Both the position numbers and the translations under genes were made by a program. The notes below the pieces were generated by a model. The model ran no database searches and was not told the DNA's origin. It was given only the letters and a program-made list of their open reading frames with translations. A stretch of DNA of 24,000 nucleotides from Pyrinomonadaceae bacterium (GTDB taxonomy: Bacteria; Acidobacteriota; Blastocatellia; Pyrinomonadales; Pyrinomonadaceae), in contig DASVWH010000110.1 of assembly GCA_036389715.1 (NCBI GenBank), positions 23,952 through 47,951 of the forward strand, in the 5' to 3' direction. This document shows, one piece after another, positions 5,185 to 24,000 of the stretch; within the stretch, counting starts at the first letter, position 1; the number at the start of each line of letters is the position of its first letter.

Positions 5185-6804
5185 TCAAGAGGAGTTCGCC
5201 GAGGGCTTCGCCTTTGTCCGGCCCGCCTTGCCGTTCAGTGCTTCGAGCGCATCGCCGAGGTCCTGCCTTTCGGTCAGGACGGGCCCGAAGAGGTCGCCGC
5301 GATGAGCGATTCGCCTGAGCATGTTCTTGATGGTGAAATCCTGGATGGTCAGCTTCTTGCGCTTGACCTCGCTCCATTCGAGCGGGGCGGAGACGGTCGC
5401 GCCCCTGCGCGGGCGCACAGAGTAAGGCGCGACGACCGATTTGCCGCGCGCGTTCTGCATATGGTCCAGGTAGATTTGGCCGCGCTTGCGTCCCTTCAAA
5501 GAGCGTTCGACGGTCGCGATTGACGAGTTCTCGGCGGCCACCTGCGTCGCGATTCGCTCGGCCAGTTCCGCCACCTCCAGATAACTGTAAACGGGCTTGA
5601 TGGGCACGTAGACGTGCAGGCCCCTGGAGCCTGAAGTCTTCGGATAGCCCTTGAGGCCGAGCCGGTCGAGGACATCCTTGACGGCCAGCGCCAGCTCGCA
5701 GATGGTGCTGAACTCGATGCCTTCTCCGGGGTCCAGGTCGAAGACGAGCCAGTCCGGGTGCTCCGGGTCCTGCACGCGAGAGTGCCAGGGATGGCGCTCT
5801 ATCGCGCCGAGGTTCGCCATGTAGAGCAGGCTTGCCAGGCCCCCGCCGACGATGTAATCCACAGCATGCCCCTGGACGGCTTCCAGCTCGGCCGTCCGCA
5901 CGTAACCGGGCGCTTCGTCAACATCATGCTGGTGAAACGAGCCGCCCGCGATGCCATCGGGGTAACGCTTCATAATCAGCGGCCGGTCTTTGAGATAGGG
6001 CAGAATGTATTTCGAGACCTCGTAGTAATAGCCGATGAGGTCGCCCTTCGTGTAGCCTTCGTCCGGCCAGTAAACCTTGTCCAGATGCGTCAGCGAGACG
6101 ACCGCCTCGCGCCCGGCCCTGACGTTGAGATCGCCCGCGAGGTTCCCCGTCTTGAAAGCGCGGCTCGCCGGGATGGCTTTGGAGTCCGGCTGCCGCTGCT
6201 CCTTGACGCCGTGCTTGACGACGGCCTTGCGGGCCGCGCCCGTGCGCCGCCCGGCGGCCTTTTCCCTGCGCTCGAACTCACCGCCCGCGTCATCCGTCGG
6301 CACTAGCAAATCCAGCTTCCAGCCGGGCCGCGCAAATTCGTCGCGGCTCTTAATCAGCAGCCATTGATTCTCCCTGCTGCCCATGCGGACGAGGTTGAAC
6401 TCGCCTGCGAGCTTGCGCCCGCTCAGGCGGAACTTGAGCTTGCCCGCGGCGAGCTGCACGAGCGGGTCGTCGCCGACGGTCAGCTCATACTCGCCTTCGT
6501 CCCAGATCATGTGCTCGCCCGCGCCGTAGTTTCCGGCGGGGATGTGTCCCTGGAATCTCAGATATTCGACGGGATGGTCTTCGGTGGGAACGGCGAGCCG
6601 CTTTTCAGCGGGGTCGAGCGAAGGGCCTCTACGGATGGACCAGGATTTGAGAACGCCGCCCATTTCGAGCCGGAAATCGAAGTGGAGCATCGAAGCGTGA
6701 TGCTCCTGGACGACGAAGCGCCGCCCGTCGCTCTTTGAGAGCTTGCCCCTGGGCTCTGGCGTCTTCCTGAAATCCCGCTTTTGATGATAGGTCTCAAGCC
6801 CCAT
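5185..6804 (-). CDS. ligD: LigD-type NHEJ protein with N-terminal 3'-phosphoesterase domain and C-terminal polymerase/primase domain; no ligase domain
   Basis: The PE signature is YHQKRDFRKTPEP...RFVVQEHHASMLHFDFRLE..GVLKSWSIRRGPSLDP...EDHPVEYL. The Pol signature is LTHLDKVYWP..GYTKGDLIGYY...LVFDLDP...KTSGSRGLHVYVP...YLDHMQNARGKSVVAPYSVRP. No K-x-D-G adenylation motif occurs anywhere in the 539 aa. Confidence 0.9.
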   Translation of the reverse strand: MGLETYHQKRDFRKTPEPRGKLSKSDGRRFVVQEHHASMLHFDFRLEMGGVLKSWSIRRGPSLDPAEKRLAVPTEDHPVEYLRFQGHIPAGNYGAGEHMIWDEGEYELTVGDDPLVQLAAGKLKFRLSGRKLAGEFNLVRMGSRENQWLLIKSRDEFARPGWKLDLLVPTDDAGGEFERREKAAGRRTGAARKAVVKHGVKEQRQPDSKAIPASRAFKTGNLAGDLNVRAGREAVVSLTHLDKVYWPDEGYTKGDLIGYYYEVSKYILPYLKDRPLIMKRYPDGIAGGSFHQHDVDEAPGYVRTAELEAVQGHAVDYIVGGGLASLLYMANLGAIERHPWHSRVQDPEHPDWLVFDLDPGEGIEFSTICELALAVKDVLDRLGLKGYPKTSGSRGLHVYVPIKPVYSYLEVAELAERIATQVAAENSSIATVERSLKGRKRGQIYLDHMQNARGKSVVAPYSVRPRRGATVSAPLEWSEVKRKKLTIQDFTIKNMLRRIAHRGDLFGPVLTERQDLGDALEALNGKAGRTKAKPSANSS

Positions 6805-6973
6805 CTTGATCCCCCGCCGGTCAGTAGGCCGATCAACTGCGCGATAGCTTATCCGATTTATCGTTTAATTCCAATACAGTTAAAATACATGACTGTCTAC
6901 TTATGACTCACTGCGGCCAGGCCAGCGAATCCCGCGCTGCTCATTGCAAGCGAGAGGCCGCGAAGAGCTGCGG

Positions 6974-7546
6974 CTACAACTTCCTGAGCACGCGCTTGAG
7001 CAGGGCGAAGTCCTCTTTGACCTTCCGGCCGAGGTCTTCCCTGTAGAACCTGACGGCCGGATGATAGCCGACCAGGTAGCTGCGCCCCTCATGCTCGATG
7101 ATGCGCCCGCGCGCCTCGTTGACGCTCTTGACGCCGAGCATCCTTCTGGCCGCGACGAGGCCGAGCAGCACGACGAGCTTCGGATTAATCAGCTCGATCT
7201 GCTCGAAGAGATAGTTCGAGGTGCAGGTTTCGACTTCCAGGCGCTTGGGGGTGCGGTTCTTCGGCGGGCGGCATTTGACCGTATTGGTGATGAAGAAGTC
7301 TGCACGGCTGATGCCCGTTCCTTCGAGCACGTGATCCAGGTAGCGTCCGGCCGAGCCGACGAACGGGTGGCCGCTCTCGTCCTCTTCTTTGCCCGGCGCT
7401 TCCCCGATAATCATCACTTTCGCGGACAGCCTGCCGTCGCCCGGCACGGCCAGGGTACGCGACTCGTGCAGAGGGCACTTGATGCAGACGCGAATCTGCG
7501 CCGCCAGTTCTTCGAGCCTGCCCGCCCTCCTCGATTTCGCCATCAT
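6974..7546 (-). CDS. Uracil-DNA glycosylase, family 4 (Fe-S type)
   Basis: Family-4 motifs are present: CIKCPL...[26 protein letters not shown]...[15 protein letters not shown] chose the ATG-ATG at 7546/7543, which follows a GAGGGGGAG SD-like stretch. The longer track ORF (to 7624) only translates the heptad repeat array. Confidence 0.85.
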
Positions 7547-7590
7547 CTCCCCCTCGACGAACCGCAAGGCTTGCAATTTACCATTATGGG

Positions 7591-7641
7591 TAAATAGTAA
7601 TAAGGGTAAATAGTAAATGGTCAATCGTGAATAGTAAAAGC
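7591..7641. repeat. Heptanucleotide tandem array A (T-N-A-A-T-N-G units on the + strand)
   Basis: Read directly: TAAATAG TAATAAG (GG) TAAATAG TAAATGG TCAATCG TGAATAG TAAAAGC. Bases 7607-7627 are the exact reverse complement of 7686-7706. Confidence 0.9.
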
Positions 7642-7685
7642 CGGAGGGCGGCGGCGGCTTTCAGCAATCGCCCTTAATCTATTTC

Positions 7686-7740
7686 CGATTGACCATTTAC
7701 TATTTACCATTGACGATTGACGATTTACTATTCACTGCTA
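7686..7740. repeat. Heptanucleotide tandem array B (C-N-A-T-T-N-A units), inverted copy of array A, ending at the ligase start codon
   Basis: Read directly: CGATTGA CCATTTA CTATTTA CCATTGA CGATTGA CGATTTA CTATTCA CTGCTA, followed by ATG at 7741. There is no purine-rich SD between the array and the ATG. Confidence 0.9.
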
Positions 7741-9372
7741 ATGAAGTTCTCTAAACTTGCACAGACCTACGACCGGATTCAGGAGGCGCGCGGCGAGCCG
7801 CAGCGGGTTCAGCTGCTGGCGGAGCTGTTTCGCGGCGCAGATGCGAAGACGTTGGCGGCGTTGGCGCACCTGACGATGGGCGAGCTGGTTGACCCGCAGT
7901 TGTCGGACAGGCTCGGCATCGGCCCCGGCACGATCAGGGGCGCGCTGGCCGTTCTTTCCGGTAAGCCCGAGAGCGTGCTTGACGACGAGGTCAGGCAGAC
8001 GGGCGACATGAGCGAAGTGGTCGCCGCGCACGCGGGCGGCGCTGACCGCCTGACGGTCAATGCGCTCCGGCTGCGCGTTAACCGCGCCGTCAGCCGCGAC
8101 GAAGACAGGCTCCAACTGCTCGCACACATCTTCGCCGAGACGACCGCCGCGGGCGCTAAGTATTTCACGCGGATGGTGCTCAACCAGATGCGTATCGGCG
8201 TCGGCGAGCGTACGCTGACCAGGGCCATCGCCAGGGCTTTCGAGGTTGACGCGGGGGCGGTCGAGCGTCTCTACGCGATGACCAACGACATGGGGCTGGC
8301 CGCCGCCCGCGCCAGGCAGGGCGCACGCGCCCTGGAGCGTGCCGGGCTCGTGCTCTTTCGCCCTTATCAATTTATGAACGCGCACAAGATGGACGACCCG
8401 GCGGAGATATTCGCGCGGCTGGCGGGCAAGCAGATCATCTTCGAGGTCAAGTATGACGGGGCGCGCCTGCAAATTCATCTCAAGGCCGGACGCGAGCCCG
8501 AAGTGAGGCTCTATTCGCGCCGTCTCAACGACGACACGGCGGCCATGCCGGATGTCGTTCGCGCCCTGCGGCAGGCCTGGCAGGGCGGCGACGCCATTCT
8601 GGAAGGCGAAGCGGTCGCCTACGACGCCGAGTTGAAGAAGAAGCAGCCCTTCCAGTCGGTCCTGATGCGCCTCGGGCGCGTCCATGCGATAGCGGAGAAA
8701 GCGCGCGAGATTCCACTTGTCCTGCATCTCTTCGAGCTGCTCTATCACGACGGCGAGGACATGATGAACGTCCCGCAGGCCGAGCGCCGCCGCAGGCTGA
8801 AAACTCTTTTCCGCCCGACCGACCGCGTGAAGATGACCGACGAAGTCGTCTCGGACCGGCGCGCCGACGAAGAGAGATTCTTCAAGCAGGCCGTCAAGTC
8901 CGGGCATGAAGGGCTGGTCGCCAAGGACCCGGATGCGCCGTACCTGCCGGGCAAGCGGACCGACTACTGGATGAAGATCAAGCCCGCGTTTGAGACCCTG
9001 GATGTCGTCGTGGTCGGCGCCATCTGGGGCTCCGGGCGCAGGCGCGGGCTGCTGTCGAGTCTCGTCATCGCCATCCGCGACGAGGACGAGTTCAAGACGG
9101 TCGGCAAGGTCGGGACCGGATTCTCCGAGGAGCTGCTTAGAGAGTTGACCGCGAAGCTCGAACCGCAAATCATCACGGCGCGCGGGCGTAACGTCGAGCT
9201 GGAGCCGGAGATGGTCATCGAGGTTGATTTCCAGGACATTCAAAAGACCCGCGCCTACGAAGCCGGTTACGTGCTGCGCATCCCGCGCTTCAGGCGCGAG
9301 CGCACGGACAAGAGCAGACGCGAGGCCGACACGCTGGCGCGCCTCAAGCGGCTCTACGATCAATCGCATTAA
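7741..9372 (+). CDS. lig: ATP-dependent DNA ligase with long N-terminal (DNA-binding-domain-like) region, adenylation and OB domains
   Basis: Motif I is FEVKYDGARLQIH, placing the lysine near residue 237 of 543. Further motifs follow: EGEAVAYD, HLFELLYHDGED, EGLVAKD and WMKIKP. I chose the ATG at 7741 (MKFSKLAQTY...); the 8 upstream codons in the track ORF are repeat-array translation. Confidence 0.9.
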   Translation: MKFSKLAQTYDRIQEARGEPQRVQLLAELFRGADAKTLAALAHLTMGELVDPQLSDRLGIGPGTIRGALAVLSGKPESVLDDEVRQTGDMSEVVAAHAGGADRLTVNALRLRVNRAVSRDEDRLQLLAHIFAETTAAGAKYFTRMVLNQMRIGVGERTLTRAIARAFEVDAGAVERLYAMTNDMGLAAARARQGARALERAGLVLFRPYQFMNAHKMDDPAEIFARLAGKQIIFEVKYDGARLQIHLKAGREPEVRLYSRRLNDDTAAMPDVVRALRQAWQGGDAILEGEAVAYDAELKKKQPFQSVLMRLGRVHAIAEKAREIPLVLHLFELLYHDGEDMMNVPQAERRRRLKTLFRPTDRVKMTDEVVSDRRADEERFFKQAVKSGHEGLVAKDPDAPYLPGKRTDYWMKIKPAFETLDVVVVGAIWGSGRRRGLLSSLVIAIRDEDEFKTVGKVGTGFSEELLRELTAKLEPQIITARGRNVELEPEMVIEVDFQDIQKTRAYEAGYVLRIPRFRRERTDKSRREADTLARLKRLYDQSH

Positions 9373-9507
9373 TGGAAGCGGAGGCGGGCCGCAAGTGATC
9401 CTCTTTCAATTCGGGCTGACGGCTTTAAGCATCAAGGGGTGGGCTTCGGTGGGAAGGCTTTGCGAGAGCGCGCCTTCCCTTCCTCCTCGGAAGAAAGGAA
9501 ACACCTG

Positions 9508-9966
9508 ATGAGAGCAAGTATCGGAAGAAAAGCCGGACTCTTTTTAGCCAGCCTGGTCCTGATGGGCCTCGCCGCCGACACAGTTTCGATGGCACGGCCT
9601 CCGCTGCCCAATCCCGTCCTGGTCTTCGTCGGGCAGGAGTTCTATTCGGCCAGCGGCAAGCAGTGGACGCGCTACAGGTACACGGTCGAGAACCTGGCCG
9701 TCTACCCGAACGAGCTTTTCGCGGCCGCGCCCAACCTCCCGCCCTGCGGGCAGAACACGAAGTCCGCGCGCACCTGGGTGGACATCTACGACCAGAACGG
9801 AAAACGGCTCTACGGATTCTGCGCCCTCGGAAATCACGACGGTCTGGGTAAACTCTGGTTCGCGCTGGAGAGCAATGCAATTCCTCCGAGCTATGTCTAT
9901 ATCGAGTTGAATGACAGGCAGACGGCGACCAAGTATAAGTCCAACCTGGCCGAGACTACGCAATAG
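9508..9966 (+). CDS. Secreted hypothetical protein
   Basis: I chose the internal ATG at 9508, which follows AAAGGAA. The product MRASIGRKAGLFLASLVLMGLAADTVSMA has a signal-peptide-like N-terminus. The family is not recognised. Confidence 0.55.
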   Translation: MRASIGRKAGLFLASLVLMGLAADTVSMARPPLPNPVLVFVGQEFYSASGKQWTRYRYTVENLAVYPNELFAAAPNLPPCGQNTKSARTWVDIYDQNGKRLYGFCALGNHDGLGKLWFALESNAIPPSYVYIELNDRQTATKYKSNLAETTQ

Positions 9967-12024: not shown

Positions 12025-13323
12025 TTATTTGAGGTCGGCGAGCGCCAGCGATGCGCCGATGAACCAGTCCCCGGCGACCGGGGCAGCCTTGGATTTGCCG
12101 CGCGGCTGAAGAATGCGATTTAAGGCCGCGAGCGCGGGCGGAGCGAGCGCATCGGGAGCCTGCGGCTCCGGGCGGCTCCGGTTAAAGGTGATGAGGCTGT
12201 CGAGCGAGCCGTAGATTTGCAGGTACATCTGCGTTTCCGTCGGAATCAGTGTCCGCCAGCCAGGGCCGCCCCGGCGCAGGTAGAGCGGCAGGCGCGCGGG
12301 GTTCGAGTTGTACCCGGCGGCGAGCAGCTCGGGCTGCGTGGCGATGCCCGAGCGCAGCGCGTCCTGTACGTCCTGGCTGCGGGCCAGCGTGTCCCAGGTG
12401 TCCTGCATGTAGAGCAGCATGGCCGAGAGCGCGTTGGCATGGTCGCTCATCCCCTCTACAAAATCGGGATTAAGCTCGACCTCCGGGTGCAGCCTCCTGA
12501 CCATCTCATAAGTAGAGGGAATCATCTGCACCATCCCGCCCGCGCCCGCGACGCTGACGGAATAGCGGTAGGTGTCGCCCGCGTTGAGCGCGTAGAGCGA
12601 GAGAATCTCTTCGAAGAGCGCCGAGCGATTCTCGGCTCGGAAGCGCCCGTGATCCGCGTGCTCGACGATGCAGAGATGCTCGGCCACGTCCACGATTTCG
12701 GGCGCGATGTTGATGCCCTCGACCCGCAGCCGCCGGGCCACCTCTTCGAGCATCCTGCGCACGTAAGTCTTGCCATCCGCGACGACCTCCTGCGAGAGAA
12801 TCGCAGGGTGCGCGGAGGTGTAATAGGCCAGCTTGCCGCTGCGCACCGGGTACTCTACCGCGAGCGGCACGAGGGAGCGGCCCGTGGCTTCATCCGTGAC
12901 CGTGACGGCAGTATTGACGCCGTTGGCGCGCACGATCTTCAGCCGCGCGCCGTGGCCGAGCGAGGTAGTCAGGCTCGTCTCAGCGCCCCTGGTCGAAAAA
13001 AGCTCCTTGGAGACGGGCAGCAGGTGTATCTGCGAAGTCGCCGGGTCGAGCGCGGCGAGCGTCACGAAATCGGACGAGGCGACGGTCGTGTGAGCCTTCA
13101 GGAGCCGCTTGGCGCTGGCTATCCGCTCGGCGGTCTGGACCATCGTCAGCGCGCCCGTGACCGACTGCGCATTAGCGAGTGCGGCCTGCGCGGCGACACC
13201 CTCTTTTTGCGAGAGCGACTGCTCTTTGGTCGTGGAAAGGTTCGTTGATTGCGCGAGCGCGAGCGGGGCTGCGAGCGCAAACAGAAGGATCAGCAAGGGG
13301 AACGATGCGCGTATTCTCATCAT
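12025..13323 (-). CDS. Secreted protein with probable lytic transglycosylase (SLT-like) domain
   Basis: The signal peptide is MMRIRASFPLLILLFALAAPLALAQS. The segment SVAGAGGMVQMIPSTYEMV resembles the SLT S-x-AGA-x-GLMQ-x-MP-x-T motif. The call rests on this motif only. Confidence 0.6.
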   Translation of the reverse strand: MMRIRASFPLLILLFALAAPLALAQSTNLSTTKEQSLSQKEGVAAQAALANAQSVTGALTMVQTAERIASAKRLLKAHTTVASSDFVTLAALDPATSQIHLLPVSKELFSTRGAETSLTTSLGHGARLKIVRANGVNTAVTVTDEATGRSLVPLAVEYPVRSGKLAYYTSAHPAILSQEVVADGKTYVRRMLEEVARRLRVEGINIAPEIVDVAEHLCIVEHADHGRFRAENRSALFEEILSLYALNAGDTYRYSVSVAGAGGMVQMIPSTYEMVRRLHPEVELNPDFVEGMSDHANALSAMLLYMQDTWDTLARSQDVQDALRSGIATQPELLAAGYNSNPARLPLYLRRGGPGWRTLIPTETQMYLQIYGSLDSLITFNRSRPEPQAPDALAPPALAALNRILQPRGKSKAAPVAGDWFIGASLALADLK

Positions 13324-13604
13324 GGGGTTTTACTTCGCCGGTCGGTTGAGAAATACGGGGGTTATCTAATAGATGCGTAGCGGAAAACGCGGGTTGTCGA
13401 GGTCAGCCGCCCGCGACGAAAATAATCGCGTGCCGGGGCGGAAGCCGCGCGAGCGAGGGGGCGGAATCCGGCCCGCAAAAACGCGGGGCGCGAAGATAAA
13501 GGGCTTTTAAAGCAGGGTGCGAGGCAGGGCGCGAGGACGAGGGACTTTTTCAGCTCCGCTCGCTGGTCAGGGTGAATCTCTCCGAAGGCTTCATTGTTAC
13601 GGCT

Positions 13605-14672
13605 TTATTCCTCGCCGCCCAGCCTCTCCTCCAACTCCTTTAAACGGCGGCGCAGGTCCTTCAGCTCGTCGCGCATCAACGGGACGCGCGCGAGGTGCGC
13701 GCTCAGCCGCTTGTACTGTTCGAGGGGCTGGACGGGGACGCCCCACCAGACGCCCGCGCGCACGATCTTGCCCGGCAGGATTCCGGCCTTTGAGCCGATA
13801 ACGGCCCCGCTCATCACGCGCGCATGGTCGCCGAGCCCGACCTGCCCGCCGATCACCACGTCGTCTTCGATGACCGTGCTGCCGCTAATGCCCGTCTGCG
13901 CAGCCACGACAACGCGCTCGCCGATCTCTACGTTGTGCGCGATCTGCACCAGGTTATCAATCTTGGTCGCGCGCCCGATGCGAGTCGGCCCGAGCGCCCC
14001 GCGGTCAATGCACGTGCCAGCGCCCACTTCCACGTCGTCCTCGATGAGCACCGTGCCGAGCTGCGGGAACTTATGGCGGACGTTCCGTTCGTCCGGGACA
14101 TAGCCGAAGCCGTCCGCGCCGACCACTACGCCTGCGTGAAGAATCACCCGGTCTCCCAGGCTGACGCCGTCGTACAGGACGACGTGCGGGTGCAGCACGC
14201 AGTCGCGGCCGATGCGCACGCCCTGGCCGATGACTACGCCCGCGTGAACCTGCGTGCCGGGGCCGAGGCTCGAACGCGCGCCCACTTCGACCCGCGCGCC
14301 GATGTAGGCGCTCTCGTCCACCTGCGCGCTCTGGTCCACCTGTGCCGTCGGGTGAATCGCGGGCGCGCGCCGCACGGGCGGATGCAGCACTTCCGCTATC
14401 AGCGCGAAGGCCAGCTTCGGCCGCGCCACTTTAATCAGGCATGGGCCTCCCGTTTGCTCTTCCGGCGCGCCCTGCGGCACGATGAGGCACGAAGCGCGGC
14501 CCGCGCCCGCCTTCGGCAGGAGCTTTAAATCCTCTATGAAGGCGACTTCGCCCGGCCCCGCGCTCTCAATCCCGGCAACACTCTTAATCGGAGTGGAGTC
14601 GTCGCCGACGGTGCGCCCGCCGACGTGCGCCGCCAGTTCCGCGACCGTTTTTTCGTTCATCTCTCTGCTCAT
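13605..14672 (-). CDS. lpxD: UDP-3-O-acylglucosamine N-acyltransferase
   Basis: An LpxD N-terminal domain (VAELAAHVGGRTVGDD...IKSVAGIESAGPGEVAFIED) is followed by hexapeptide repeats. The diagnostic stretch GADGFGY...KFPQLGTVLIEDDVEVGAGTCIDRGALGPTRIGRATKIDNLVQIAHNVEIG is present. Confidence 0.9.
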   Translation of the reverse strand: MSREMNEKTVAELAAHVGGRTVGDDSTPIKSVAGIESAGPGEVAFIEDLKLLPKAGAGRASCLIVPQGAPEEQTGGPCLIKVARPKLAFALIAEVLHPPVRRAPAIHPTAQVDQSAQVDESAYIGARVEVGARSSLGPGTQVHAGVVIGQGVRIGRDCVLHPHVVLYDGVSLGDRVILHAGVVVGADGFGYVPDERNVRHKFPQLGTVLIEDDVEVGAGTCIDRGALGPTRIGRATKIDNLVQIAHNVEIGERVVVAAQTGISGSTVIEDDVVIGGQVGLGDHARVMSGAVIGSKAGILPGKIVRAGVWWGVPVQPLEQYKRLSAHLARVPLMRDELKDLRRRLKELEERLGGEE

Positions 14673-14716
14673 CTCTCTCCTGGTTATAGCGCCGGGCTGC
14701 GGCCGAAAAGCGTCGG

Positions 14717-15541
14717 CTAAACGGGGAGCGGAGCCTGGTCTTGCGGGCGCTCGCCTCTTCTGCGCTCGCGCGGGAAGCCGCGTTTGGAGCCGCGTATGAA
14801 ATTGACCAGATGCTCGACGTTCGGGTCCGGCGCTTCCTGCGTCAAGAGGCCGAGCGCCTCTGCCAGCGGCAGGCCGGAGCGAAACAGCAAATGGTAAGCA
14901 CGCTTGAGCGCGCGCCGCTCGTCGGCCCCGAATCCGGCCCGCCTCAATCCGACCGTGTTGAGGCCGCGAACGCGCGGCGGATTCCCGTCCGTCGTCAGGA
15001 ACGGCAGCACGTCCTGCACTATCTTCGACTTACCGCCGACCATCGCGTAGCGCCCGATGCGGACGAACTGGTGCGCGCCGACGTTGGAAGAGAGAAAAAC
15101 GTGGTCCTCGACCAGGATGTGCCCGGCCAGCGCCACGCCGTTGGCAAAGATGTTATCGTCGCCGACCAGGCAGTTGTGCGCCAGGTGAACGCCGATCATC
15201 AGGAAGTTGCGCGAGCCAAGGCGCGTCTCCTGCCCCTCGCCGCTGGCCCTGTGCAGCGTTGCGCCCTCGCGAATCAGGTTCTCGTCACCGATGACCAGGC
15301 GGCTGTGCTCGCCCCTGAACTTAACGTCCTGCGGCAGGCCGCCCAGCACCACGTGCTCCGCGACGCGGTTGCCCCGCCCGAGGCTCGTAAAACGCTTGAT
15401 GACCGTGTGCGACGCGATCTCGCAGCCTTCGCCGATGACCACGTCCTCTTCGATGACAACGTATGGCCCGATGCGCACATCTGATGCAATCCGGGCGCGC
15501 GGGCTGATGATGGCCGTCGAATCAATGCTCATACCGGACAT
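14717..15541 (-). CDS. lpxA: Acyl-ACP--UDP-N-acetylglucosamine O-acyltransferase
   Basis: Diagnostic LpxA motifs are present: IGPYVVIEEDVVIG...LGGLPQDVKFRGE.S.LVIGDENLIREGATLHR...HLAHNCLVGD....ANGVALAGHILVEDHVFLSS....HQFVRIGRYAMVGG.SKIVQDVLPF...GLNTVGLRRAGF. Confidence 0.9.
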   Translation of the reverse strand: MSGMSIDSTAIISPRARIASDVRIGPYVVIEEDVVIGEGCEIASHTVIKRFTSLGRGNRVAEHVVLGGLPQDVKFRGEHSRLVIGDENLIREGATLHRASGEGQETRLGSRNFLMIGVHLAHNCLVGDDNIFANGVALAGHILVEDHVFLSSNVGAHQFVRIGRYAMVGGKSKIVQDVLPFLTTDGNPPRVRGLNTVGLRRAGFGADERRALKRAYHLLFRSGLPLAEALGLLTQEAPDPNVEHLVNFIRGSKRGFPRERRRGERPQDQAPLPV

Positions 15542-15543
15542 CG

Positions 15544-15571
15544 TAAATGGTAAAGAGTAAATAGTGAATAG
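15544..15571. repeat. Heptanucleotide tandem array C, 2 nt upstream of the lpxA start codon
   Basis: Read directly: TAAATGG TAAAGAG TAAATAG TGAATAG. These are the same unit type and the same orientation relative to the adjacent gene as arrays A and B. Confidence 0.85.
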
Positions 15572-15722
15572 AGGAAGCGCCGAAAGCCTTCTCTCATTTC
15601 GATTTACGGCGCATCCGGCGGCCGCTTTAGTGCTTGCCTTTACCCGGTCGAGCCTCTATTATGTCACGTTGCATTTGCTTTGTGCGGCCCGCCGTGTGCG
15701 GGGCAACAATCATTGAAATCAA

Positions 15723-15744
15723 TACTTTAGCTTTACTTTAGCTT
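15723..15744. repeat. Perfect 11-nt tandem duplication TACTTTAGCTT x2 in the lpxA / radical SAM divergent intergenic region
   Basis: Read directly. It sits in an AT-rich patch about 55 nt upstream of the TTG start at 15800. Confidence 0.85.
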
Positions 15745-15799
15745 TAATCACAGGGACGCCCGGCGCTTTTCGGGAGCCTCCCTTCTAGGAGAATCAGTC

Positions 15800-17776
15800 T
15801 TGTTCAGCGATCAATTTCGCAGGGGCGAAGCGGAAAAGGGTAAATTCAGCGGGGTCAAAAGCTCGACCCTGCTCTCGAACCTTTCGGACGTGGCCTGGAA
15901 GGTCTTCCAGTCGGTCAACAAACGTTTGCCCGAAGGCGAGGCCATTCGCCCCAGTTGGGCTCCGGGGCCGCTCCTGAAATCTCACGAGCGCACGGCCCCG
16001 CCGCTCGGCTTCCCGCGCGAGACCGACAGCTTGTGCCCGCGCTGCGTCAAGGAAGTGCGCGACGCCGTCATTACCGGCGAGACGGCGCTCGAAACACTGA
16101 TGCACGCGCATCCGGGCGAGATCAAGGCGCAGATTCTGGAAGAGGACGGACAGGTCATCATGCGCAAGACCTGCCCGAAGCACGGCGAATTCACGGACGT
16201 GATGGCCACCGACCCGAAGTTTTTGGAGCGCATCGAATCTCTCTTCTTCGGCCGGGACTTTCGCGTCGCCGAAGACTCGCACGTGCACAAGCACGGCACG
16301 TCGAACATCAAGTTCGGGCGCGGCGCTGTGCTCACGGTTGATCTAACCAACCGTTGCAACATGATGTGCAACCCCTGCTTCATGGACGCCAACCAGGTCG
16401 GCTATGTCCATGAGCCGACCTTCGAGGACACGAAGGCCATCCTTGATCGCGCCGTCTCCTTCAAGCCGCGCCGCCAGATCATCATTCTCTTTTCGGGCGG
16501 CGAGCCGACGCTCTCGCCCTATTACCTGGAGGCTGTCGCCTACGCCCGGAAGATAGGCTTCTACAGAATCCTGGCCGCGACCAACGGCATCCGCTTCGCC
16601 GAAGACATAGAGTTCTGCAAGGCCGCCAAGGAGGCCGGGCAGCACGGCGTCTATCTACAGTTCGACGGCGTCTCCGAGGAGAAGAACAAGCACAGGGGCG
16701 TCGGCAATCTCTTCGACGTGAAGCTGCGCGCCATCGAGAACCTGGCTTCGGTCGGCATCAAGGTCACGCTCGTCACGACCATCGTCAACACCATCAATAA
16801 CGACGGCATCGGCGAGATAGTCAAATTCGCCGCGCAGAACATAGACAAGGTCCAGACCATAGCCTTTCAGCCCGTCTCCTTTACGGGCCGTGACGAGGAC
16901 GTGCCCGACGACGTTCGCATCAAACAGCGCTACACGCTGGCCGGGATGACGCATGACCTCAAGGACCAGCTCGACGGGCAGTTGCAGCCGCTGCGCGATT
17001 GGTTCCCGCTCTCTTCCTACTCGGCGTTTACGAGCGTGATGGACATGTTACAGGGAGCCGACGCGCCCTGGGGCTGGTCGTCCTGTAACTGCCACCCGAA
17101 CTGCGGCATCTTCACGTTGATGGTCGTCAATCGCCGCACGGGCGCGATCACTTCGCTCTTCGAGTTCTTCGACTACGAGCAGTTCATGAAGGACGTGGCC
17201 GTCATCACGGACACGGCGCGCGGGCGTAAGCTCTCCTACGCGCAATTGGCGATGGCGATCATGAGAAACTTCGACGCCCGGCGCGCGCCCGAAGGCTTCC
17301 CCATTTCGCAGATCATCAATCTCTTCAAGCCGTCTTCGACCAACTCCAATTCGGACCGCAACGACCGGATGAAGACGCAGGCTCCCGGCTCGGAAGACGA
17401 GGGCGACATGTGGCGCGTGCTCTGCGTCGAGGGCATGTGGTTCCAGGACCTCTTCAACTACGATTTCCGCCGCACAGAGATGTGCGTTATCCCTTACGGC
17501 ACACAGGAAGGCGAAATCTCCTTCTGCGCCTACAACACCGGCGTCGGCTGGCGGCAGATTATCGAGAACATGCACAAGACCGCCAGCCTCTCCGAGTGGT
17601 ATCAGGAGCACGGACGCCACGCCGTCTATGCTAGGGGCAAGAACGTCCCGCTCAAGACCACCCGGCACACCTTGAGCCTGCCCATCGTCAACCGGATTCT
17701 GGCCGACGATGCGGACCAGCCGGTCGAGACGGTGACGCCCTATCTCGTCGAAGAGAAAGAGGAAGCGGCCGTTTAA
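15800..17776 (+). CDS. Large radical SAM enzyme with Tes/MJ0619-family architecture (candidate tetraether / membrane-spanning lipid synthase homologue)
   Basis: TTG start lies 7 nt after AGGAGA, and no in-frame ATG precedes the first conserved motif. The N-terminus carries SLCPRC...(x40)...KTCPKHGEF, a zinc-ribbon/rubredoxin-like motif. The radical SAM motif is VDLTNRCNMMCNPC (CX3CX2C), followed by FSGGEPT, ATNG, YLQFDG and IAFQPVSFTGR. The C-terminus has extra Cys clusters (CNCHPNCG; C...FCAYN). The match to the Tes family is by remembered architecture, not by search. Confidence 0.8.
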   Translation: MFSDQFRRGEAEKGKFSGVKSSTLLSNLSDVAWKVFQSVNKRLPEGEAIRPSWAPGPLLKSHERTAPPLGFPRETDSLCPRCVKEVRDAVITGETALETLMHAHPGEIKAQILEEDGQVIMRKTCPKHGEFTDVMATDPKFLERIESLFFGRDFRVAEDSHVHKHGTSNIKFGRGAVLTVDLTNRCNMMCNPCFMDANQVGYVHEPTFEDTKAILDRAVSFKPRRQIIILFSGGEPTLSPYYLEAVAYARKIGFYRILAATNGIRFAEDIEFCKAAKEAGQHGVYLQFDGVSEEKNKHRGVGNLFDVKLRAIENLASVGIKVTLVTTIVNTINNDGIGEIVKFAAQNIDKVQTIAFQPVSFTGRDEDVPDDVRIKQRYTLAGMTHDLKDQLDGQLQPLRDWFPLSSYSAFTSVMDMLQGADAPWGWSSCNCHPNCGIFTLMVVNRRTGAITSLFEFFDYEQFMKDVAVITDTARGRKLSYAQLAMAIMRNFDARRAPEGFPISQIINLFKPSSTNSNSDRNDRMKTQAPGSEDEGDMWRVLCVEGMWFQDLFNYDFRRTEMCVIPYGTQEGEISFCAYNTGVGWRQIIENMHKTASLSEWYQEHGRHAVYARGKNVPLKTTRHTLSLPIVNRILADDADQPVETVTPYLVEEKEEAAV

Positions 17777-17948
17777 CTTCCCAGGTCCGGCCGCTCACTC
17801 AGTTGGAGAGAGCGGCGGCCAACCGTTTTGAAGCGTTCCAGATACCTCTCTGGCCCCGTGAGCAACGGGCGTTACTGAACGACGCCCCGACTTACACACT
17901 TATGTTTCGTGTCTCCCGATAACCGAAACTCTCAACTTTGGAGACCTT

Positions 17949-18428
17949 ATGAAAAAACTTCTCGCCCTCCTGCTCTGCCTCTGCATCCTTTCCGCAGCAG
18001 TTCTCGCTCAGGGAAATCAATTCGAGATTCGTTACGTCGGCGGCTCCATCGCAAGCACCGTCAAGCCTGACGACTGGGGTAACAGCATCACCGTCAGCTC
18101 CGACTTGATTACCTTAAAATTGAAGGACGGCCAGGAAATCAAGATTGACCCGAAGAACGTCAAGCTCTTAACGCACAGTCGCCAGGCCAGCCGCCGCATC
18201 GGCGCGTATGCCGCCGCCGCAATCATCAGCCCGATCTTTCTGCTCGGGATGCTCAAGAAGAACAAGCGCCATTTCATCGGCATCGCGGTCGAGTCTCCCG
18301 ATGGCAAGAAGGACGGCTACAACTTGCAGGCGAAGAATGATAAATACAAGGCCCTGATTACCGCGCTCGAAGGCGTCACCGGGCTGAAAGTGGAAGAAGA
18401 AGTAGAAGAGAAAAAAGAGAAGAAGTAA
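17949..18428 (+). CDS. Small exported/membrane-anchored protein with Lys/Glu-rich C-terminal tail, unknown function
   Basis: The signal peptide is MKKLLALLLCLCILSAAVLAQG. An internal hydrophobic segment IGAYAAAAIISPIFLLGML is followed by KKNKRH. The tail reads EEEVEEKKEKK. The gene is visibly more AT-rich than its neighbours, and its stop lies 15 nt before the next gene. Confidence 0.65.
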   Translation: MKKLLALLLCLCILSAAVLAQGNQFEIRYVGGSIASTVKPDDWGNSITVSSDLITLKLKDGQEIKIDPKNVKLLTHSRQASRRIGAYAAAAIISPIFLLGMLKKNKRHFIGIAVESPDGKKDGYNLQAKNDKYKALITALEGVTGLKVEEEVEEKKEKK

Positions 18429-18443
18429 GGCTATTTTCACCAG

Positions 18444-19436
18444 ATGAACCTTCCAAAAAGACTTCGCCGCATCGCCGACACGACGCGCCTGCTTATCACC
18501 GGCCTACCGAAGAATGCCATCGGCTCGATTGATGTCACCAACCGCTGCAACCTGCGCTGCGAGCACTGCTATTTCTTCGCCGAAGATCACAAGGGCGAGA
18601 AGGAACTGTCCGTCGAGAAGTGGATCGAGAAGCTCGAAGAGATGAAGGCTGCCGGGCATCCGATGCTGCTCTGCACGTGGGTCGGCGGCGAGCCGATGGT
18701 ACGCAAGCAATTGATCGAGGTCGGCCGCAAGTATTTCAAGCATAACACCATCGTTACCAACGGGACGATGGAGCTGCCCGACTGGGACGACTGCAACTAC
18801 GTCATCTCGATAGACGGAACGGAAGAGGCGTTCGCGCGGATGCGAGCGCCCGGCATCTACCAGAAGATCAAGCAGAACGTCATCAATCACCCGGAGCTGA
18901 AGATTCAAATCTCCTGCGTCGTAACGAGCCTGACGAAGGACTGCATAGAGGATTTGGTCCGGGAGTGGGGGCCGCTGGCGCGCGGCGGCATCATCTTCGA
19001 TTTCTTCACGCCCGTCACGAACCTGGACGAGGCGCTCTGGCTCGACTGGGAAGAGCGCGACCGGATGATTGACCGGATACTCGAATTGAAGAAGAAATAT
19101 CCGGGCGTCATCAACATGATGGACTCGACCCTGGAGCTGATGCGTGCCAGGAACGCTAAGAAGGTGACGGACAATTGCGAGTTTCGCCTGAAGGCTTTCA
19201 CGCTCGGGCCGACGGGCGAGCCCAAGGGCAAGTGCATGATGGGCGACAAGGCCGACTGTGACCGCTGCGGCTGCGTCGTGCCCTTTCACATGGCGACCCT
19301 GAGCAGCCGTCGCCTGATGCTCAAAGAGACCGTGAAATCCTGGCGCGCGCCCAAGCGGACAGCCCCCGTGCCGCAATCGCCCGTGCAAATCTCGCCCCGC
19401 ACCTTCAAAGAGGCCGGGCCCGAAGACGCGTTTTGA
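18444..19436 (+). CDS. Compact radical SAM enzyme with C-terminal Cys cluster (CX7CX2CXC)
   Basis: Motifs are IDVTNRCNLRCEHC (CX3CX2C), WVGGEPM, VTNGT and ISIDG. The C-terminus carries KCMMGDKADCDRCGCVVPF. The subfamily is not resolved from sequence reading. Confidence 0.85.
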   Translation: MNLPKRLRRIADTTRLLITGLPKNAIGSIDVTNRCNLRCEHCYFFAEDHKGEKELSVEKWIEKLEEMKAAGHPMLLCTWVGGEPMVRKQLIEVGRKYFKHNTIVTNGTMELPDWDDCNYVISIDGTEEAFARMRAPGIYQKIKQNVINHPELKIQISCVVTSLTKDCIEDLVREWGPLARGGIIFDFFTPVTNLDEALWLDWEERDRMIDRILELKKKYPGVINMMDSTLELMRARNAKKVTDNCEFRLKAFTLGPTGEPKGKCMMGDKADCDRCGCVVPFHMATLSSRRLMLKETVKSWRAPKRTAPVPQSPVQISPRTFKEAGPEDAF

Positions 19437-19514
19437 GAAGACGCCTGGCTGACGCGCAGGGAGCGGCATCGCGCGCAGAATGACCTGTGGCCCAAACTGT
19501 CAGGAGACGCCAAC

Positions 19515-19850
19515 ATGCCTGAGCCGCAGATGAAGTCCTTCGAGAAATTCTGGCCGCACTATGTGGCCGAGCATAGCCGTCCGGCGACGCGCGCGCTGCA
19601 TTTTGCGGGGACGACCGCGGCGCTCGGATGCGCGGCCGCGCTGATTGCTAAAGGAAAGTGGAAGTGGCTGCCGCTCGCTTTCGTCCCGGGCTACGCCGCC
19701 GCCTGGGCCAGCCATTTTCTGGTCGAGAAGAACAGGCCCGCGACCTTTGAACATCCACTCTGGTCGCTCCGCGCCGATTACAGGATGTTTGGCCTGATGC
19801 TCGCCGGAAAGATGGACGCAGAGATTTCCAGGGTCAGGCCGAACGGCTGA
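19515..19850 (+). CDS. DUF962 / Mpo1-like membrane protein
   Basis: AGGAGA SD lies 7 nt upstream. FEKFWPHYVAEHSRPATRALHFAGT...GYAAAWASHFLVEKNRPATFEHPLWSLRADYRMF is the characteristic DUF962 pattern, including the conserved His residues. Confidence 0.8.
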   Translation: MPEPQMKSFEKFWPHYVAEHSRPATRALHFAGTTAALGCAAALIAKGKWKWLPLAFVPGYAAAWASHFLVEKNRPATFEHPLWSLRADYRMFGLMLAGKMDAEISRVRPNG

Positions 19851-21520: not shown

Positions 21521-22696
21521 TTAACGACGTTTCTTACCGCCTCCGGCCCCACCCTTAGAGCCGCCTCCTTTAGAACCGCCCCCGCCACTCTTACCAGCGC
21601 CGCTTTTGGAACCGCCTTTGGAGCCGCCTCCTCCGCCCTTGCCGCCACCTTTAGAGCCGCCGCCGGAGCCTTTACCGCCACCGCCTCCCGAGCCTCCCCT
21701 GGCTGCTCCACCCTTCGAGCCTCCGCCGCCGCGACCGCCAGCCTTCGACCCGCCCTTGCCGCCGCCTTTTGAGCCGCCGCCTTTGCCCGTCGCTTTAGCG
21801 CCGCCCGCGCTGCCGCCTGAACGCGCTCCGCCTTTGGTGCTGCCTTTGGTCCCGGCCTTCGAGGCCTTCCGTCGCTTGCTGCCATCCTTGTTTGTGCCGC
21901 CGCCTGCGCTGCCGCGTCCGCCTCCGGCATTGCCGCCGGTCTTGGCCGCGCCCCTGCCGCCGCCCGTCGCACTGGTTCCGCGCGCGCTGCCGCTGACGCC
22001 GCCGCCGGTTATGCCGCCACGTGTATCAGCGCCACCGCGAGCGCCTTTTCCAGCGCCGCCTTTCGAGCCGCCGCCGCCAGCCTTCGAGCCGCCCTTGCCG
22101 CCACTCTTGGAGCCGCCGCCGCTGCCTCCGCGACCGCCGCCGGAGGCTCCTCCACCGCCGCCACCGCCCGTGCTCCCGCCGCCCTGACCAGCGCCACTTC
22201 CGGCTCCACCTTTAGAGCCGCCTCCACCACCCTTGCCGCCACCTTTAGAGCCGCCGGAGCCTTTACCGCCACCGCCTCCCGAGCCTCCCCTGGCTCCACC
22301 CTTCGAGCCTCCGCCGCCCTTGGAACCACCTGCACCGCCACCTCCGCGCGTGCCACCACCGGACGCGCCGCCACCGCCTGATGCCTCGCCGCCGGATGCG
22401 CCGCCGCCATCGCCCGTGCCGCCTGAGCCCCCGGAGCTGCCTGAGCCGGAACCTGTGCCCTCGCCTCCGCTGGCAGAGCCGCCCCCGCCTGCGCCGCTCC
22501 CGGACGTTCCGCCGCCGGTACTGCTGTCGTCGGCCATGTTTGCGCCCATGCCCGTGGCACGGCCGATGGCTGCACCGCCGTGGCCGCTTTCGCCGCCGCC
22601 ACCGCTTGCTCCGCCCGTGTCGCTCATCGCGCCGGTCCCTGCTCCGGCATCGCTTCTTTGATCGTCCCCGTTGTTTCCATTGCCTTGATCGGACAT
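21521..22696 (-). CDS. Extreme glycine-rich low-complexity protein (acidic/neutral N-terminus, GGSKGG / RGG-type basic repeats, KKRR C-terminus)
   Basis: The ATG at 22696 follows an AAGGAG SD, giving 391 aa. This single uninterrupted frame runs across 1.2 kb, while the opposite-strand Pro-rich frames are broken. Gly is encoded by a mix of GGC/GGA/GGT/GGG and Ser by TCT/TCC/AGC/AGT. Indels between internal repeats are multiples of 3. The gene ends at the strong terminator. Confidence 0.65.
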   Translation of the reverse strand: MSDQGNGNNGDDQRSDAGAGTGAMSDTGGASGGGGESGHGGAAIGRATGMGANMADDSSTGGGTSGSGAGGGGSASGGEGTGSGSGSSGGSGGTGDGGGASGGEASGGGGASGGGTRGGGGAGGSKGGGGSKGGARGGSGGGGGKGSGGSKGGGKGGGGGSKGGAGSGAGQGGGSTGGGGGGGASGGGRGGSGGGSKSGGKGGSKAGGGGSKGGAGKGARGGADTRGGITGGGVSGSARGTSATGGGRGAAKTGGNAGGGRGSAGGGTNKDGSKRRKASKAGTKGSTKGGARSGGSAGGAKATGKGGGSKGGGKGGSKAGGRGGGGSKGGAARGGSGGGGGKGSGGGSKGGGKGGGGGSKGGSKSGAGKSGGGGSKGGGSKGGAGGGKKRR

Positions 22697-22859
22697 CTCG
22701 TCTACTCCTTTTTTGAGTTGAACCCAAAGTGTTAGAGGGTGAATTAGGTGATCCCAAAGAGCACGACTTCTTTGCGGCGGAGAATAGCACAACTCGTGCG
22801 CGTGTGTTTCACTCTTTCTCCTCTCAAGGAGGAAAAATCGGGTGTCCGGCCGGGCCCGT

Positions 22860-22928: not shown

Positions 22929-23486
22929 ATGGAAGCACTCTCTTCGACACTGACCGTGCTGACGGCCATGATTACGCCCGCCGTGCTGATTTCGGCCTGC
23001 GGGACGATGATTCTCTCGACCTCGACGCGACTCGGGCGCGTCGTAGACCGCGTCCGCAACCTCTCCGACAGGCTCGAAGAGCTGGCCGAGGGCGAGCAGA
23101 TGAAGCTGCTCGAAGAGAGGCGCATAGTCATCTTCGAGCAGCTGGACAAGCTGACCAGCCGCGCGCGCATTCTCCAACGCGCGATGACCCTCTTTTACAC
23201 GGCGCTCGGCGTCTTCGTCTTTACCAGCGTGGCCATCGGCATCGTCGCCGTCTCGGGCTCGCGCTACAACTGGATTCCCATCATCTTCGCCCTGCTCGGC
23301 GCTTGCTGTCTCCTGTACGGCAGCATACTATTGATCTTCGAGGCACGACTGGCCCTCGGGACCATCCATTCGGAGATGGATTTCATCTGGCAGTTCAGCA
23401 AGCATTTCGTCCCCGCCGAGGTGGTCGAGCGTTACAAGCCGCACTCGGTCCATTTCAGACGCCATGAGCGAAAGCCGAAGCCCTGA
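22929..23486 (+). CDS. DUF2721 domain-containing membrane protein
   Basis: LTAMITPAVLISACGTMILSTSTRLGRVVDRVRNL, followed by a coiled segment and two C-terminal hydrophobic helices, is the pattern I recognise for DUF2721. Confidence 0.75.
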   Translation: MEALSSTLTVLTAMITPAVLISACGTMILSTSTRLGRVVDRVRNLSDRLEELAEGEQMKLLEERRIVIFEQLDKLTSRARILQRAMTLFYTALGVFVFTSVAIGIVAVSGSRYNWIPIIFALLGACCLLYGSILLIFEARLALGTIHSEMDFIWQFSKHFVPAEVVERYKPHSVHFRRHERKPKP

Positions 23487-24000
23487 GCCGGACATCACCG
23501 GCCCATCAGAAGAGCCCTCTTACCTGCGTTTGCACAGGACCGGCGAGCTTGTCCGCCGCGTCGAGGCGCTCGAAGCCCTCCTTGAGCGCTGCACGGTCTG
23601 CCCGCGCGATTGCCTGAACAATCGTCTCAGGGACGAGATCGCGGCCTGCTATTCGGGACGGCTGCCGATAGTCTCGTCCTACACGCCGCACTTCGGCGAA
23701 GAGCCTGCGCTGGTCGGCACGGGCGGCGCGGGCAACATCTTTTTCGGCAACTGCAACCTGCGCTGCGTCTACTGCCAGAACTACCAGATTTCACAGACGC
23801 ACAAAGAGCAGCTCAGGAACCAGGTAACGCACGAACGCCTGGCCGCGATGATGCTCGAACTGCAAGCGCGCGGCTGTCACAACATCAACTTCGTCTCGCC
23901 CACGCACTTCGCGCCGCAACTGGCGCGCGCCGTGCTGCTGGCCGCCGAAGAGGGTCTGCGGCTGCCCATCGTCTATAACACCAACGCTTACGACGCGGTC
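23464..24000 (+). CDS. Radical SAM protein, PflX-like (pyruvate formate-lyase activase homologue, COG1313-type), 3' end outside the window
   Basis: Missing from the ORF track because it is open-ended. My translation from the ATG at 23464 is MSESRSPEPDITGPSEEPSYLRLHRTGELVRRVEALEALLERCTVCPRDC...SSYTPHFGEEPALVGTGGAGNIFFGNCNLRCVYCQNYQISQ...CHNINFVSPTHF...VYNTNAYD. The frame stays open to base 24000. The start overlaps the DUF2721 stop by 23 nt. Confidence 0.85.
   Translation, partial: MSESRSPEPDITGPSEEPSYLRLHRTGELVRRVEALEALLERCTVCPRDCLNNRLRDEIAACYSGRLPIVSSYTPHFGEEPALVGTGGAGNIFFGNCNLRCVYCQNYQISQTHKEQLRNQVTHERLAAMMLELQARGCHNINFVSPTHFAPQLARAVLLAAEEGLRLPIVYNTNAYDAV

Follow-up and report, generated by a model that had tools for sequence, protein, structure and literature searches.

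Which enzyme builds the membrane-spanning lipids of Acidobacteria, and is it encoded together with partners of its own? The question is raised by a stretch of 24,000 nucleotides from a Pyrinomonadaceae bacterium (contig DASVWH010000110.1; below, the window), in which the gene of a 658-residue radical S-adenosylmethionine (SAM) enzyme, here termed TesL, is followed by three genes on the same strand. The source contig is a 46.8-kb metagenome contig (ENA ERZ27253091, k141_609866), the public gene calls of which are identical to the open reading frames (ORFs) found here. The earlier note on this DNA saw in TesL the architecture of archaeal MJ0619/Tes, the glycerol dialkyl glycerol tetraether (GDGT)/macrocyclic archaeol synthase (GDGT-MAS), and in the four genes a candidate cluster for membrane-spanning lipids. 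Judged by its sequence, TesL is a Tes-family enzyme, a full-length homologue of archaeal Tes/GDGT-MAS that belongs to a separate bacterial sister clade; the four-gene arrangement is peculiar to this contig and not a conserved module.

TesL as a bacterial relative of Tes

Pfam assigns a Zn_ribbon_HMPTM (55.9 bits) and a Radical_SAM domain to TesL. Its best NCBIfam match is Tes (319 bits, residues 75–593), ahead of TrsS (210 bits, residues 107–396 only) and NirJ1 (96 bits), all other families staying below 100; the profile placement of 15800–17776, which the earlier note had proposed as a check, thus points to Tes rather than to a peptide or cofactor family. The top sequence match in the PDB, and the only strong one, is M. 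jannaschii GDGT-MAS (7TOL; E 1.5e-69, residues 107–604). The AlphaFold model, calculated from a 19-sequence alignment, is of low confidence (predicted local distance difference test, pLDDT, 57; below 50 after residue 548); the Foldseek search with this low-confidence model is headed by 7TOM/7TOL (E 2e-27, TMt 0.68, 519 columns), the next structure following at 8e-8. GDGT-MAS leads the PDB sequence and fold matches of TesL by ~20 orders of magnitude.

Within the family, TesL falls on the bacterial side. On the Tes equivalog model of NCBIfam (NF045702, curated cutoff 450 bits), five clade representatives from a library of 50%-identity representatives, which are 38–48% identical to TesL, score 171–299 bits, and five true-Tes representatives, 31–35% identical to TesL, score 474–584 bits. 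A neighbour-joining tree without support values, calculated like the residue alignment from 108 sequences, unites 80 genome homologues and the TesL of the window in one large bacterial clade, apart from the clade that holds MJ0619 and the high-scoring representatives. The closest homologues, thousands of sequences at 84–91% identity, carry the labels Pyrinomonadaceae, Blastocatellia or Acidobacteriota, which makes the host a subdivision 4 acidobacterium.

The genome scan, for which an alignment of the 658-residue protein and three distant representatives served as query, gave at least 600 matches; those listed are metagenome-assembled genomes (MAGs) only, and the missing of Pyrinomonas K22 and of isolates among them is uninformative. 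A homology search with an Acidobacteriaceae-type member likewise returned MAGs only. The synteny sample consists of 80 genome loci (GTDB species representatives, 10-kb flanks each), which are grouped by identity to the TesL of the window: (i) close loci (79–90%) from Pyrinomonadaceae, Blastocatellia and Chloracidobacterium; (ii) intermediate loci (64–73%) from other Acidobacteriota; (iii) distant loci (52–57%), the acidobacterial part of which comes from Terriglobia/Acidobacteriaceae, Bryobacterales/Solibacteraceae, Vicinamibacterales, Thermoanaerobaculia and Holophagales, and the rest from Latescibacterota, Gemmatimonadales, Polyangia and one Dongiaceae MAG. Among the matches listed, the TesL clade is found in Terriglobia, Bryobacterales/Solibacteraceae, Blastocatellia and Vicinamibacterales, which we take to correspond to subdivisions 1, 3, 4 and 6. 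Two Pyrinomonadaceae/Blastocatellia MAGs (L067, L078) carry an Acidobacteriaceae-like TesL, ~50% identical to that of the window, instead of or besides the Blastocatellia type, a pattern that hints at paralogy or at horizontal transfer inside the clade. Directly upstream of TesL, L078 has a further radical SAM gene (365 residues).

The GDGT-MAS structure holds four metal sites: (i) a rubredoxin-like Fe site (C9/C12/C33/H36), (ii) the N-terminal cluster [4Fe-4S]N (C73/C77/C80 plus a His), (iii) the radical SAM cluster and (iv) the C-terminal cluster [4Fe-4S]C (three Cys plus the labile Met439). In TesL, the rubredoxin-like site reads C79-P-R-C82 ... C125-P-K-H128-G and aligns to C9-x2-C12 ... 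C33-x2-H36; the radical SAM motif, C186x3C190x2C193, is kept in all groups of the 108-sequence alignment. Cys residues occupy C-terminal positions 429, 431, 435, 542, 562 and 576, of which C435, C562 and C576, together with M546 (the equivalent of Met439), align with the C-terminal cluster columns and are conserved in all groups, the Cys ligands being assigned by conservation and Met439 alone being named in the structure paper. The motifs read earlier from the 658-residue ORF (CPxC...CPxHG, CX3CX2C and extra C-terminal Cys) are thus all present. Every one of the 80 aligned clade members keeps the rubredoxin-like C/C/C/H, CX3CX2C, the three C-terminal Cys and the Met439 equivalent, and the FQPVSFTGRD loop, which binds 5'-deoxyadenosine in GDGT-MAS, is conserved in the clade.

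The exception is the N-terminal cluster. At the four [4Fe-4S]N ligand positions TesL has H161, H165, S168 and K171, and non-cysteine residues stand there clade-wide. An alignment-free count of Cys between CPxH and CX3CX2C gave none in 29/29 close and 40/46 distant clade members, and at least three in 21/25 true-Tes-like sequences. Three of these 25 true-Tes-like representatives, including P0312 with its 584 bits, likewise lack N-cluster Cys; by its ligand pattern, the N-terminal [4Fe-4S] cluster is not universal within Tes proper. Because of these three, and because GDGT-MAS has the cluster at its surface, remote from the lipid pockets, its loss need not abolish function. The best explanation would be that the bacterial sister clade lost this surface-exposed cluster. 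At the same spot 67/75 sequences show a clade-specific HxH(G/N) motif (H163-x-H165 in TesL), and an equally clade-specific extra pair, C429/C431, stands beside C435.

TesL thus has in common with Tes/GDGT-MAS the rubredoxin-like three Cys plus His, CX3CX2C, the C-terminal three Cys plus Met and the FQPVSFTGR loop. To judge from the low-confidence model, it may also share the overall four-domain fold of 7TOL with its C-terminal lipid-binding domain. It differs by its identity of ~30–34%, its score below the 450-bit cutoff, the lack of [4Fe-4S]N ligands and of any Cys in their segment, the HxH motif, the C429/C431 pair and ~75 extra N-terminal and ~50 extra C-terminal residues. The likeness to MJ0619/Tes claimed by the earlier note therefore stands for the family, on NCBIfam, PDB and fold evidence alike, and falls short for the architecture, in which the four N-terminal ligands are missing, and for the score. 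To our knowledge, archaeol is absent from bacteria; the substrate of TesL must therefore differ from that of Tes.

Lipid-gene context and proposed reaction

Around TesL, the window is laid out as follows:

13605–14672, minus strand: lpxD, above the NCBIfam cutoff, divergent from TesL
14717–15541, minus strand: lpxA, above the NCBIfam cutoff, divergent from TesL
15542–15799: lpxA–TesL divergent intergenic region, 258 bp
15634–15662, plus strand: sigma-70-like site in this intergenic region
15789–15794: AGGAGA ribosome-binding site, 7 nt upstream of the TesL TTG start
15800–17776, plus strand: TesL, Tes-like radical SAM enzyme, 658 residues, TTG start
17949–18428, plus strand: p159, 159 residues, signal peptide and single transmembrane segment, no family match in Pfam or NCBIfam
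18444–19436, plus strand: rSAM2, second radical SAM enzyme, 330 residues, Pfam Radical_SAM
19515–19850, plus strand: DUF962/Mpo1-like protein, 111 residues, Pfam PF06127

The positions and strands of the four ORFs, and the divergence of TesL from lpxA and lpxD, are those given before. Across the 80 loci, lpxD and/or lpxA are found in 23, all of the close or intermediate group: lpxD lies within 10 kb of TesL in 18/28 close and 5/10 intermediate loci, and none of the 42 distant clade members shows lpx linkage. The adjacency is confined to Blastocatellia-type Acidobacteria, in whose loci lpxB and lptD are often adjacent as well. A second arrangement is seen in L032–L034, where TesL and lpxD follow each other in tandem on the same strand with gaps of 71–250 bp; the two arrangements may stem from selection that favours linkage or from no more than a single inversion. 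In several close relatives a SIR2_2-domain gene and a large nSTAND/WD40 (STAND NTPase) gene are inserted between lpxA and TesL (L089:1768–5489, L003:5439–9514, L007:8471–9478, L008:4427–9456, L017:8587–9597; none in the window), which looks like an anti-phage defence pair at an integration hot spot.

Six of the 42 distant loci have a B12-binding radical SAM gene in the 10 kb to either side of TesL. It lies directly beside TesL in L042 (12043–13527), L054 (11909–13426), L059 (7603–8262) and L079, which has three copies (8115–9935, 12282–13763, 13937–15694), 2.2 kb off in L041 (6269–7756) and 7.5 kb off in L056 (974–2446). Among curated families these genes come nearest to the hopanoid C-3 methylase HpnR, with a score of 351 bits that stays below its cutoff of 650, and the hosts are Gemmatimonadales, Latescibacterota, Bryobacterales and other Acidobacteriota; these HpnR-like genes are candidate lipid-chain methylases. 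A fatty-acid desaturase gene directly follows TesL in a Solibacteraceae locus. When 20 genes next to TesL in distant loci were compared with Pfam, most had no match or proved unrelated, and clustering of the neighbours by all-against-all BLAST found none conserved beyond the Blastocatellia-type clade.

We propose, with moderate confidence, that TesL is a Tes-type tail-to-tail lipid coupling enzyme, which would make iso-diabolic-acid-based membrane-spanning lipids. Full-length homology, ligand pattern and taxonomic and genomic context are observed; substrate, product and chemistry are inferred, the mechanism by homology with GDGT-MAS. The reaction could proceed in the following manner: SAM would be reductively cleaved at the CX3CX2C cluster, and the resulting 5'-deoxyadenosyl radical would take a hydrogen from a glycerolipid bound in a hydrophobic tunnel, at the terminal carbon of an acyl or alkyl chain with iso branching (iso-C15-type). 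The retained C-terminal cluster, with its three Cys and labile Met, may hold the first radical during activation of the second chain; formation of the C–C bond would then yield iso-diabolic-acid-type membrane-spanning lipids, the presumed precursors of branched GDGTs (brGDGTs). Tail-to-tail coupling seems the best reading because iso-diabolic acid is a product of the source family and the synthase Mss is missing from Acidobacteria. In Pyrinomonas methylaliphatogenes, of the type genus of Pyrinomonadaceae, membrane-spanning and ether lipids make up more than 40%, with iso-diabolic acid and its glycerol ethers among them; subdivisions 1, 3, 4 and 6 are iso-diabolic-acid producers, and no mss homologue was found in Acidobacteria (Sahonero-Canavesi et al. 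2022).

Several points weigh against this proposal. TesL misses the Tes equivalog cutoff (319 versus 450 bits) and, lacking the N-terminal auxiliary ligands C73/C77/C80 plus His, differs in a defining cofactor site. Tes homologues were counted in 3 of 14 iso-diabolic-acid-producing acidobacterial genomes (Sahonero-Canavesi et al. 2022; E <= 1e-50, at least 30% identity), thresholds right on which the TesL clade falls. The clade is also present in Latescibacterota, Gemmatimonadota, Polyangia and an alphaproteobacterial MAG, and all of its matches listed are MAGs, with no cultured, lipid-typed carrier among them. Pyrinomonas is an obligate aerobe, while Mss works only anaerobically in E. coli. 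Most TesL loci lack the partner gene rSAM2: among the 17 close loci in which 2 kb or more follow TesL, only three have it, and it is missing in L088, at 91% identity. Finally, the literature to 2025–26 holds no experiment in which a bacterial Tes homologue was shown to make a lipid. A bolder form of the proposal is possible, if unlikely: the clade with the cysteine-free N-domain would be the iso-diabolic-acid synthase of aerobic Acidobacteria, working with a cofactor set reduced from three clusters to two beside the one Fe site; in Blastocatellia it would be tied to lipid A and outer-membrane biogenesis, since the lpx linkage persists in two arrangements; and rSAM2 would found a new envelope-lipid-modifying family, the distant members of which would act together with MlaC/OEP/HpnN-like genes of lipid export.

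The lpx linkage raises an alternative that is possible, if unlikely: TesL may act on another envelope lipid or in another reaction, for example by cross-linking or macrocyclising lipid A or outer-membrane acyl chains together with lpxA/lpxD. The incidence of lpxD in close and intermediate loci, its two arrangements and the adjacent lpxB and lptD would fit, as would the intramolecular macrocycle that GDGT-MAS also makes and the company that rSAM2-like genes keep with OEP and MlaC, outer-membrane lipid traffic genes. The linkage is, however, absent from all 42 distant members, and vertical inheritance with one inversion could explain it; moreover, GDGT-MAS binds diacyl and diether glycerophospholipids, and no report was found that ties iso-diabolic or any dicarboxylic acid to acidobacterial lipid A.

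Less probable still is a role outside lipid metabolism, as a TrsS-like, cofactor or peptide radical SAM enzyme, in which case the likeness to Tes would reflect shared ancestry only. The score below the cutoff, TrsS as second-best family, the altered cofactor complement and the clade-specific HxH and CxC motifs could be read in this way, and even MJ0619 was for a time annotated, wrongly, as a pterin methylase. The match to TrsS is, however, restricted to residues 107–396, whereas that to Tes includes the C-terminal lipid/cluster domain, and true Tes representatives give the same ratio of Tes to TrsS scores; the C-terminal cluster ligands and Met are conserved; and no precursor-peptide or cofactor genes recur nearby, the recurrent neighbours being lipid and envelope genes. 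The view that TesL is not a peptide or cofactor radical SAM enzyme is thus supported by matches, ligands and neighbours.

rSAM2 and the other neighbours

That TesL, p159, rSAM2 and the Mpo1-like protein form a dedicated membrane-spanning-lipid module, in which the Mpo1-like protein as dioxygenase and the small protein would act on the same lipid, is very improbable: the common strand, the gaps of 173, 15 and 78 bp and the lack of plus-strand terminator-like sites between the four genes, the co-transcription of which is plausible, and solid membership of the 111-residue protein in the family of yeast Mpo1, an enzyme of 2-hydroxy fatty acids (Pfam description), are in its favour, but neither the Mpo1-like gene nor p159 recurs in any of the 80 loci (phmmer, each window protein against all ORFs, E < 1e-5) or of six additional contigs checked for synteny, relatives with TesL 90–91% identical included. 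The synteny of the set is thus not conserved, an outcome that the earlier note itself had named as speaking against it, and the four genes are rejected as a conserved module. Relatives have rSAM2 and/or a HisKA-only gene instead; three of them, at 91% identity, share the order lptD-lpxB-lpxD-lpxA, then divergently TesL-(rSAM2)-HisKA (minus strand), with rSAM2 in two of the three and Mpo1 in none. The window lacks the HisKA-only gene conserved in these relatives and has gained Mpo1, pepT and unrelated genes. Both p159 and the Mpo1-like gene would be incidental here, being neighbours of TesL on no other contig examined.

Of what the earlier note said about the three genes after TesL, the signal peptide of p159, the second radical SAM enzyme and the Mpo1-like family proved right; the label of membrane protein for the last needs a small correction, since the 111 residues contain no strongly hydrophobic 19-mer and the label derives solely from the family name. 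The match to PF06127 (118.4 bits, cutoff 24) spans profile positions 1–95 of 95, so that, compared with yeast Mpo1/DUF962, the protein is a full-length Pfam match with the minimal domain only, and its link to TesL is not conserved. In p159, the signal peptide covers residues 1–25 and one hydrophobic segment residues 84–102. It holds the slot that is taken by a family of exported proteins (cluster 5) in 11 related loci; as a divergent member of cluster 5 it was rejected, as a search with filters off gave one target (E 4e-4, 6 bits) and one with default filters nothing. It is at most a positional analogue, the two families being unrelated or very divergent. The HisKA-only protein of Pyrinomonadaceae (~100 residues, dimerisation/phosphoacceptor domain) is encoded on the opposite strand just downstream of TesL(-rSAM2), at L083:8087–8380, L085:8012–8329, L087:9342–9677, L088:8165–8503 and L089:9259–9588 and in 12 GTDB loci.

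rSAM2 is an optional accessory and the only downstream gene evolutionarily linked to TesL. The two genes are paired on nine contigs (P0121, P0133, P0206, L008, L015, L026, L087, L089 and the window), and L012 has a fragment of rSAM2 at the contig end. In all three contexts fetched from rSAM2 homologues at 72–87% identity (P0121, P0133, P0206), rSAM2 lies 30 bp–1 kb downstream of TesL, with nothing, a 180-residue protein or an antitoxin in between. Homologues at ~50% identity are not beside TesL; in 3/3 contexts they are the first gene of an operon that continues with OEP, MlaC, a hypothetical protein and a GH42M-like protein. With rSAM2 itself beside TesL and these homologues beside OEP/MlaC, both branches of the family are therefore found among envelope-lipid genes. 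The operon, located at L002:2597–13908 and on two contigs of JGI sample 3300047160, looks like a system for lipid head-group synthesis and export; the genes that precede it in L002 encode an HpnN-like RND transporter, a flippase-like LPG_synthase_TM protein, a phosphatidylinositol-phosphate-synthase-like enzyme and a GFO/IDH/MocA oxidoreductase.

The radical SAM motif CX3CX2C of rSAM2 is C35/C39/C42. The canonical seven-Cys SPASM motif is absent; instead, five invariant C-terminal Cys have another spacing, C245-x18-C264-x7-C272-x2-C275-x-C277, which would suffice for one auxiliary cluster of the twitch/SPASM type. The family is small, with 771 matches at E <= 1e-5 in 5.8 billion proteins, and falls in no curated NCBIfam family; ScmE comes closest, with 60 of the 400 bits that its cutoff requires. 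In fold, the good model (pLDDT 79.5) is similar to twitch/SPASM enzymes in a generic way only, with TM ~0.5; the best matches are SkfB (E 3e-10, TM 0.57) and anSME, and GDGT-MAS is outside the top 50. With SkfB, anSME, SuiB and MoaA, rSAM2 shares the radical SAM core and a C-terminal Cys-rich auxiliary-cluster domain; unlike in these enzymes, its context consists of lipid and envelope genes, not of peptide genes. Other identities (HpnH, a Grs-like protein, a truncated Tes paralogue) were rejected: HpnH is outside the 25 best NCBIfam matches of rSAM2 and the 22 of its homologue P0229, and the alignment with TesL is restricted to the radical SAM core (24% identity over 170 residues). The most likely role of rSAM2 would be to modify, as an optional partner, the envelope lipid on which TesL acts.

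Elsewhere in the window, a third radical SAM gene (350 residues, Radical_SAM and Fer4_12) at 23464–24000 slightly overlaps the preceding DUF2721 gene (22929–23486) and runs off the window end; it is complete at L001:17665–18717, matches no NCBIfam family and is near TesL in no other locus. The 423-residue ORF at 21521–22792 (minus strand) consists almost entirely of Gly/Ser/Lys repeats (GGGSKGG...) without a Pfam match; mirror-image Pro-rich and Arg-rich ORFs lie on other frames there, and the public annotation calls a 391-residue gene. Downstream of lpxD, a 432-residue protein with signal peptide and no family match (12025–13323, minus strand) has a homologue at the same position only in L040. 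Rfam and tRNA scans of the window gave no matches. A non-homologous end-joining/repair set occupies 5185–9372:

5185–6804, minus strand: LigD, phosphoesterase and primase-polymerase
6974–7624, minus strand: uracil-DNA glycosylase family gene
7717–9372, plus strand: ATP-dependent DNA ligase

Relation to known systems and significance

That bacterial Tes homologues make brGDGT-type lipids, as the earlier note mentioned, has been proposed in print, subdivision 4 included. Zeng et al. (2022) reported 456 such homologues, proposed their role in brGDGT synthesis and named Koribacter and Solibacter (40–42% identity) and Edaphobacter aggregans (32%, 4e-61 to MA_1486). Guided by that study, Chen et al. 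(2022) found brGDGTs in Solibacter and pointed to organisms of subdivisions 4 and 6 with Tes homologues as places to look; a pathway in which Tes condenses diethers was put forward by Halamka et al. (2022). Hypothesis and family are the same for TesL, and Edaphobacter stands at the similarity level of the TesL clade, whereas the top Tes matches of Solibacter and Koribacter are probably closer to true Tes. The published work treats the bacterial homologues as one group, in which the Pyrinomonadaceae TesL would represent a sister clade without the N-terminal cluster.

The earlier note was aware of no biochemically defined bacterial gene set, which needs correction: Mss and Ger, although absent from Acidobacteria, were shown by expression in E. 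coli to make diabolic acids and ethers (Sahonero-Canavesi et al. 2022). The reaction proposed for Mss of Thermotoga and Thermoanaerobacter is the same, a radical SAM tail-to-tail coupling of acyl chains to (iso-)diabolic acids, and its catalytic architecture is reportedly that of Tes; the published description sets Mss apart as a different family, known only from anaerobes.

TesL as a candidate brGDGT/iso-diabolic-acid synthase is thus reasonable and already proposed (Zeng et al. 2022, Chen et al. 2022), and with the general hypothesis in print and the four-gene cluster not upheld, the value of this window is modest. New are the distinct sister clade with its altered cofactor set, the TesL–rSAM2 pairing, the limitation of the lpx linkage to Blastocatellia-type Acidobacteria and, in other phyla, the partners resembling HpnR. 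Few continental proxies of palaeotemperature and pH are used as widely as brGDGTs, and the enzyme that builds the acidobacterial backbone is still sought. If the proposed function is true, brGDGT producers in soils and lakes could be mapped with a clade-specific marker; the reduced cofactor set would reveal the essential parts of the Tes machinery; and rSAM2 and the HpnR-like B12 methylases would become candidates for the modifications that the proxies read, such as methylation.

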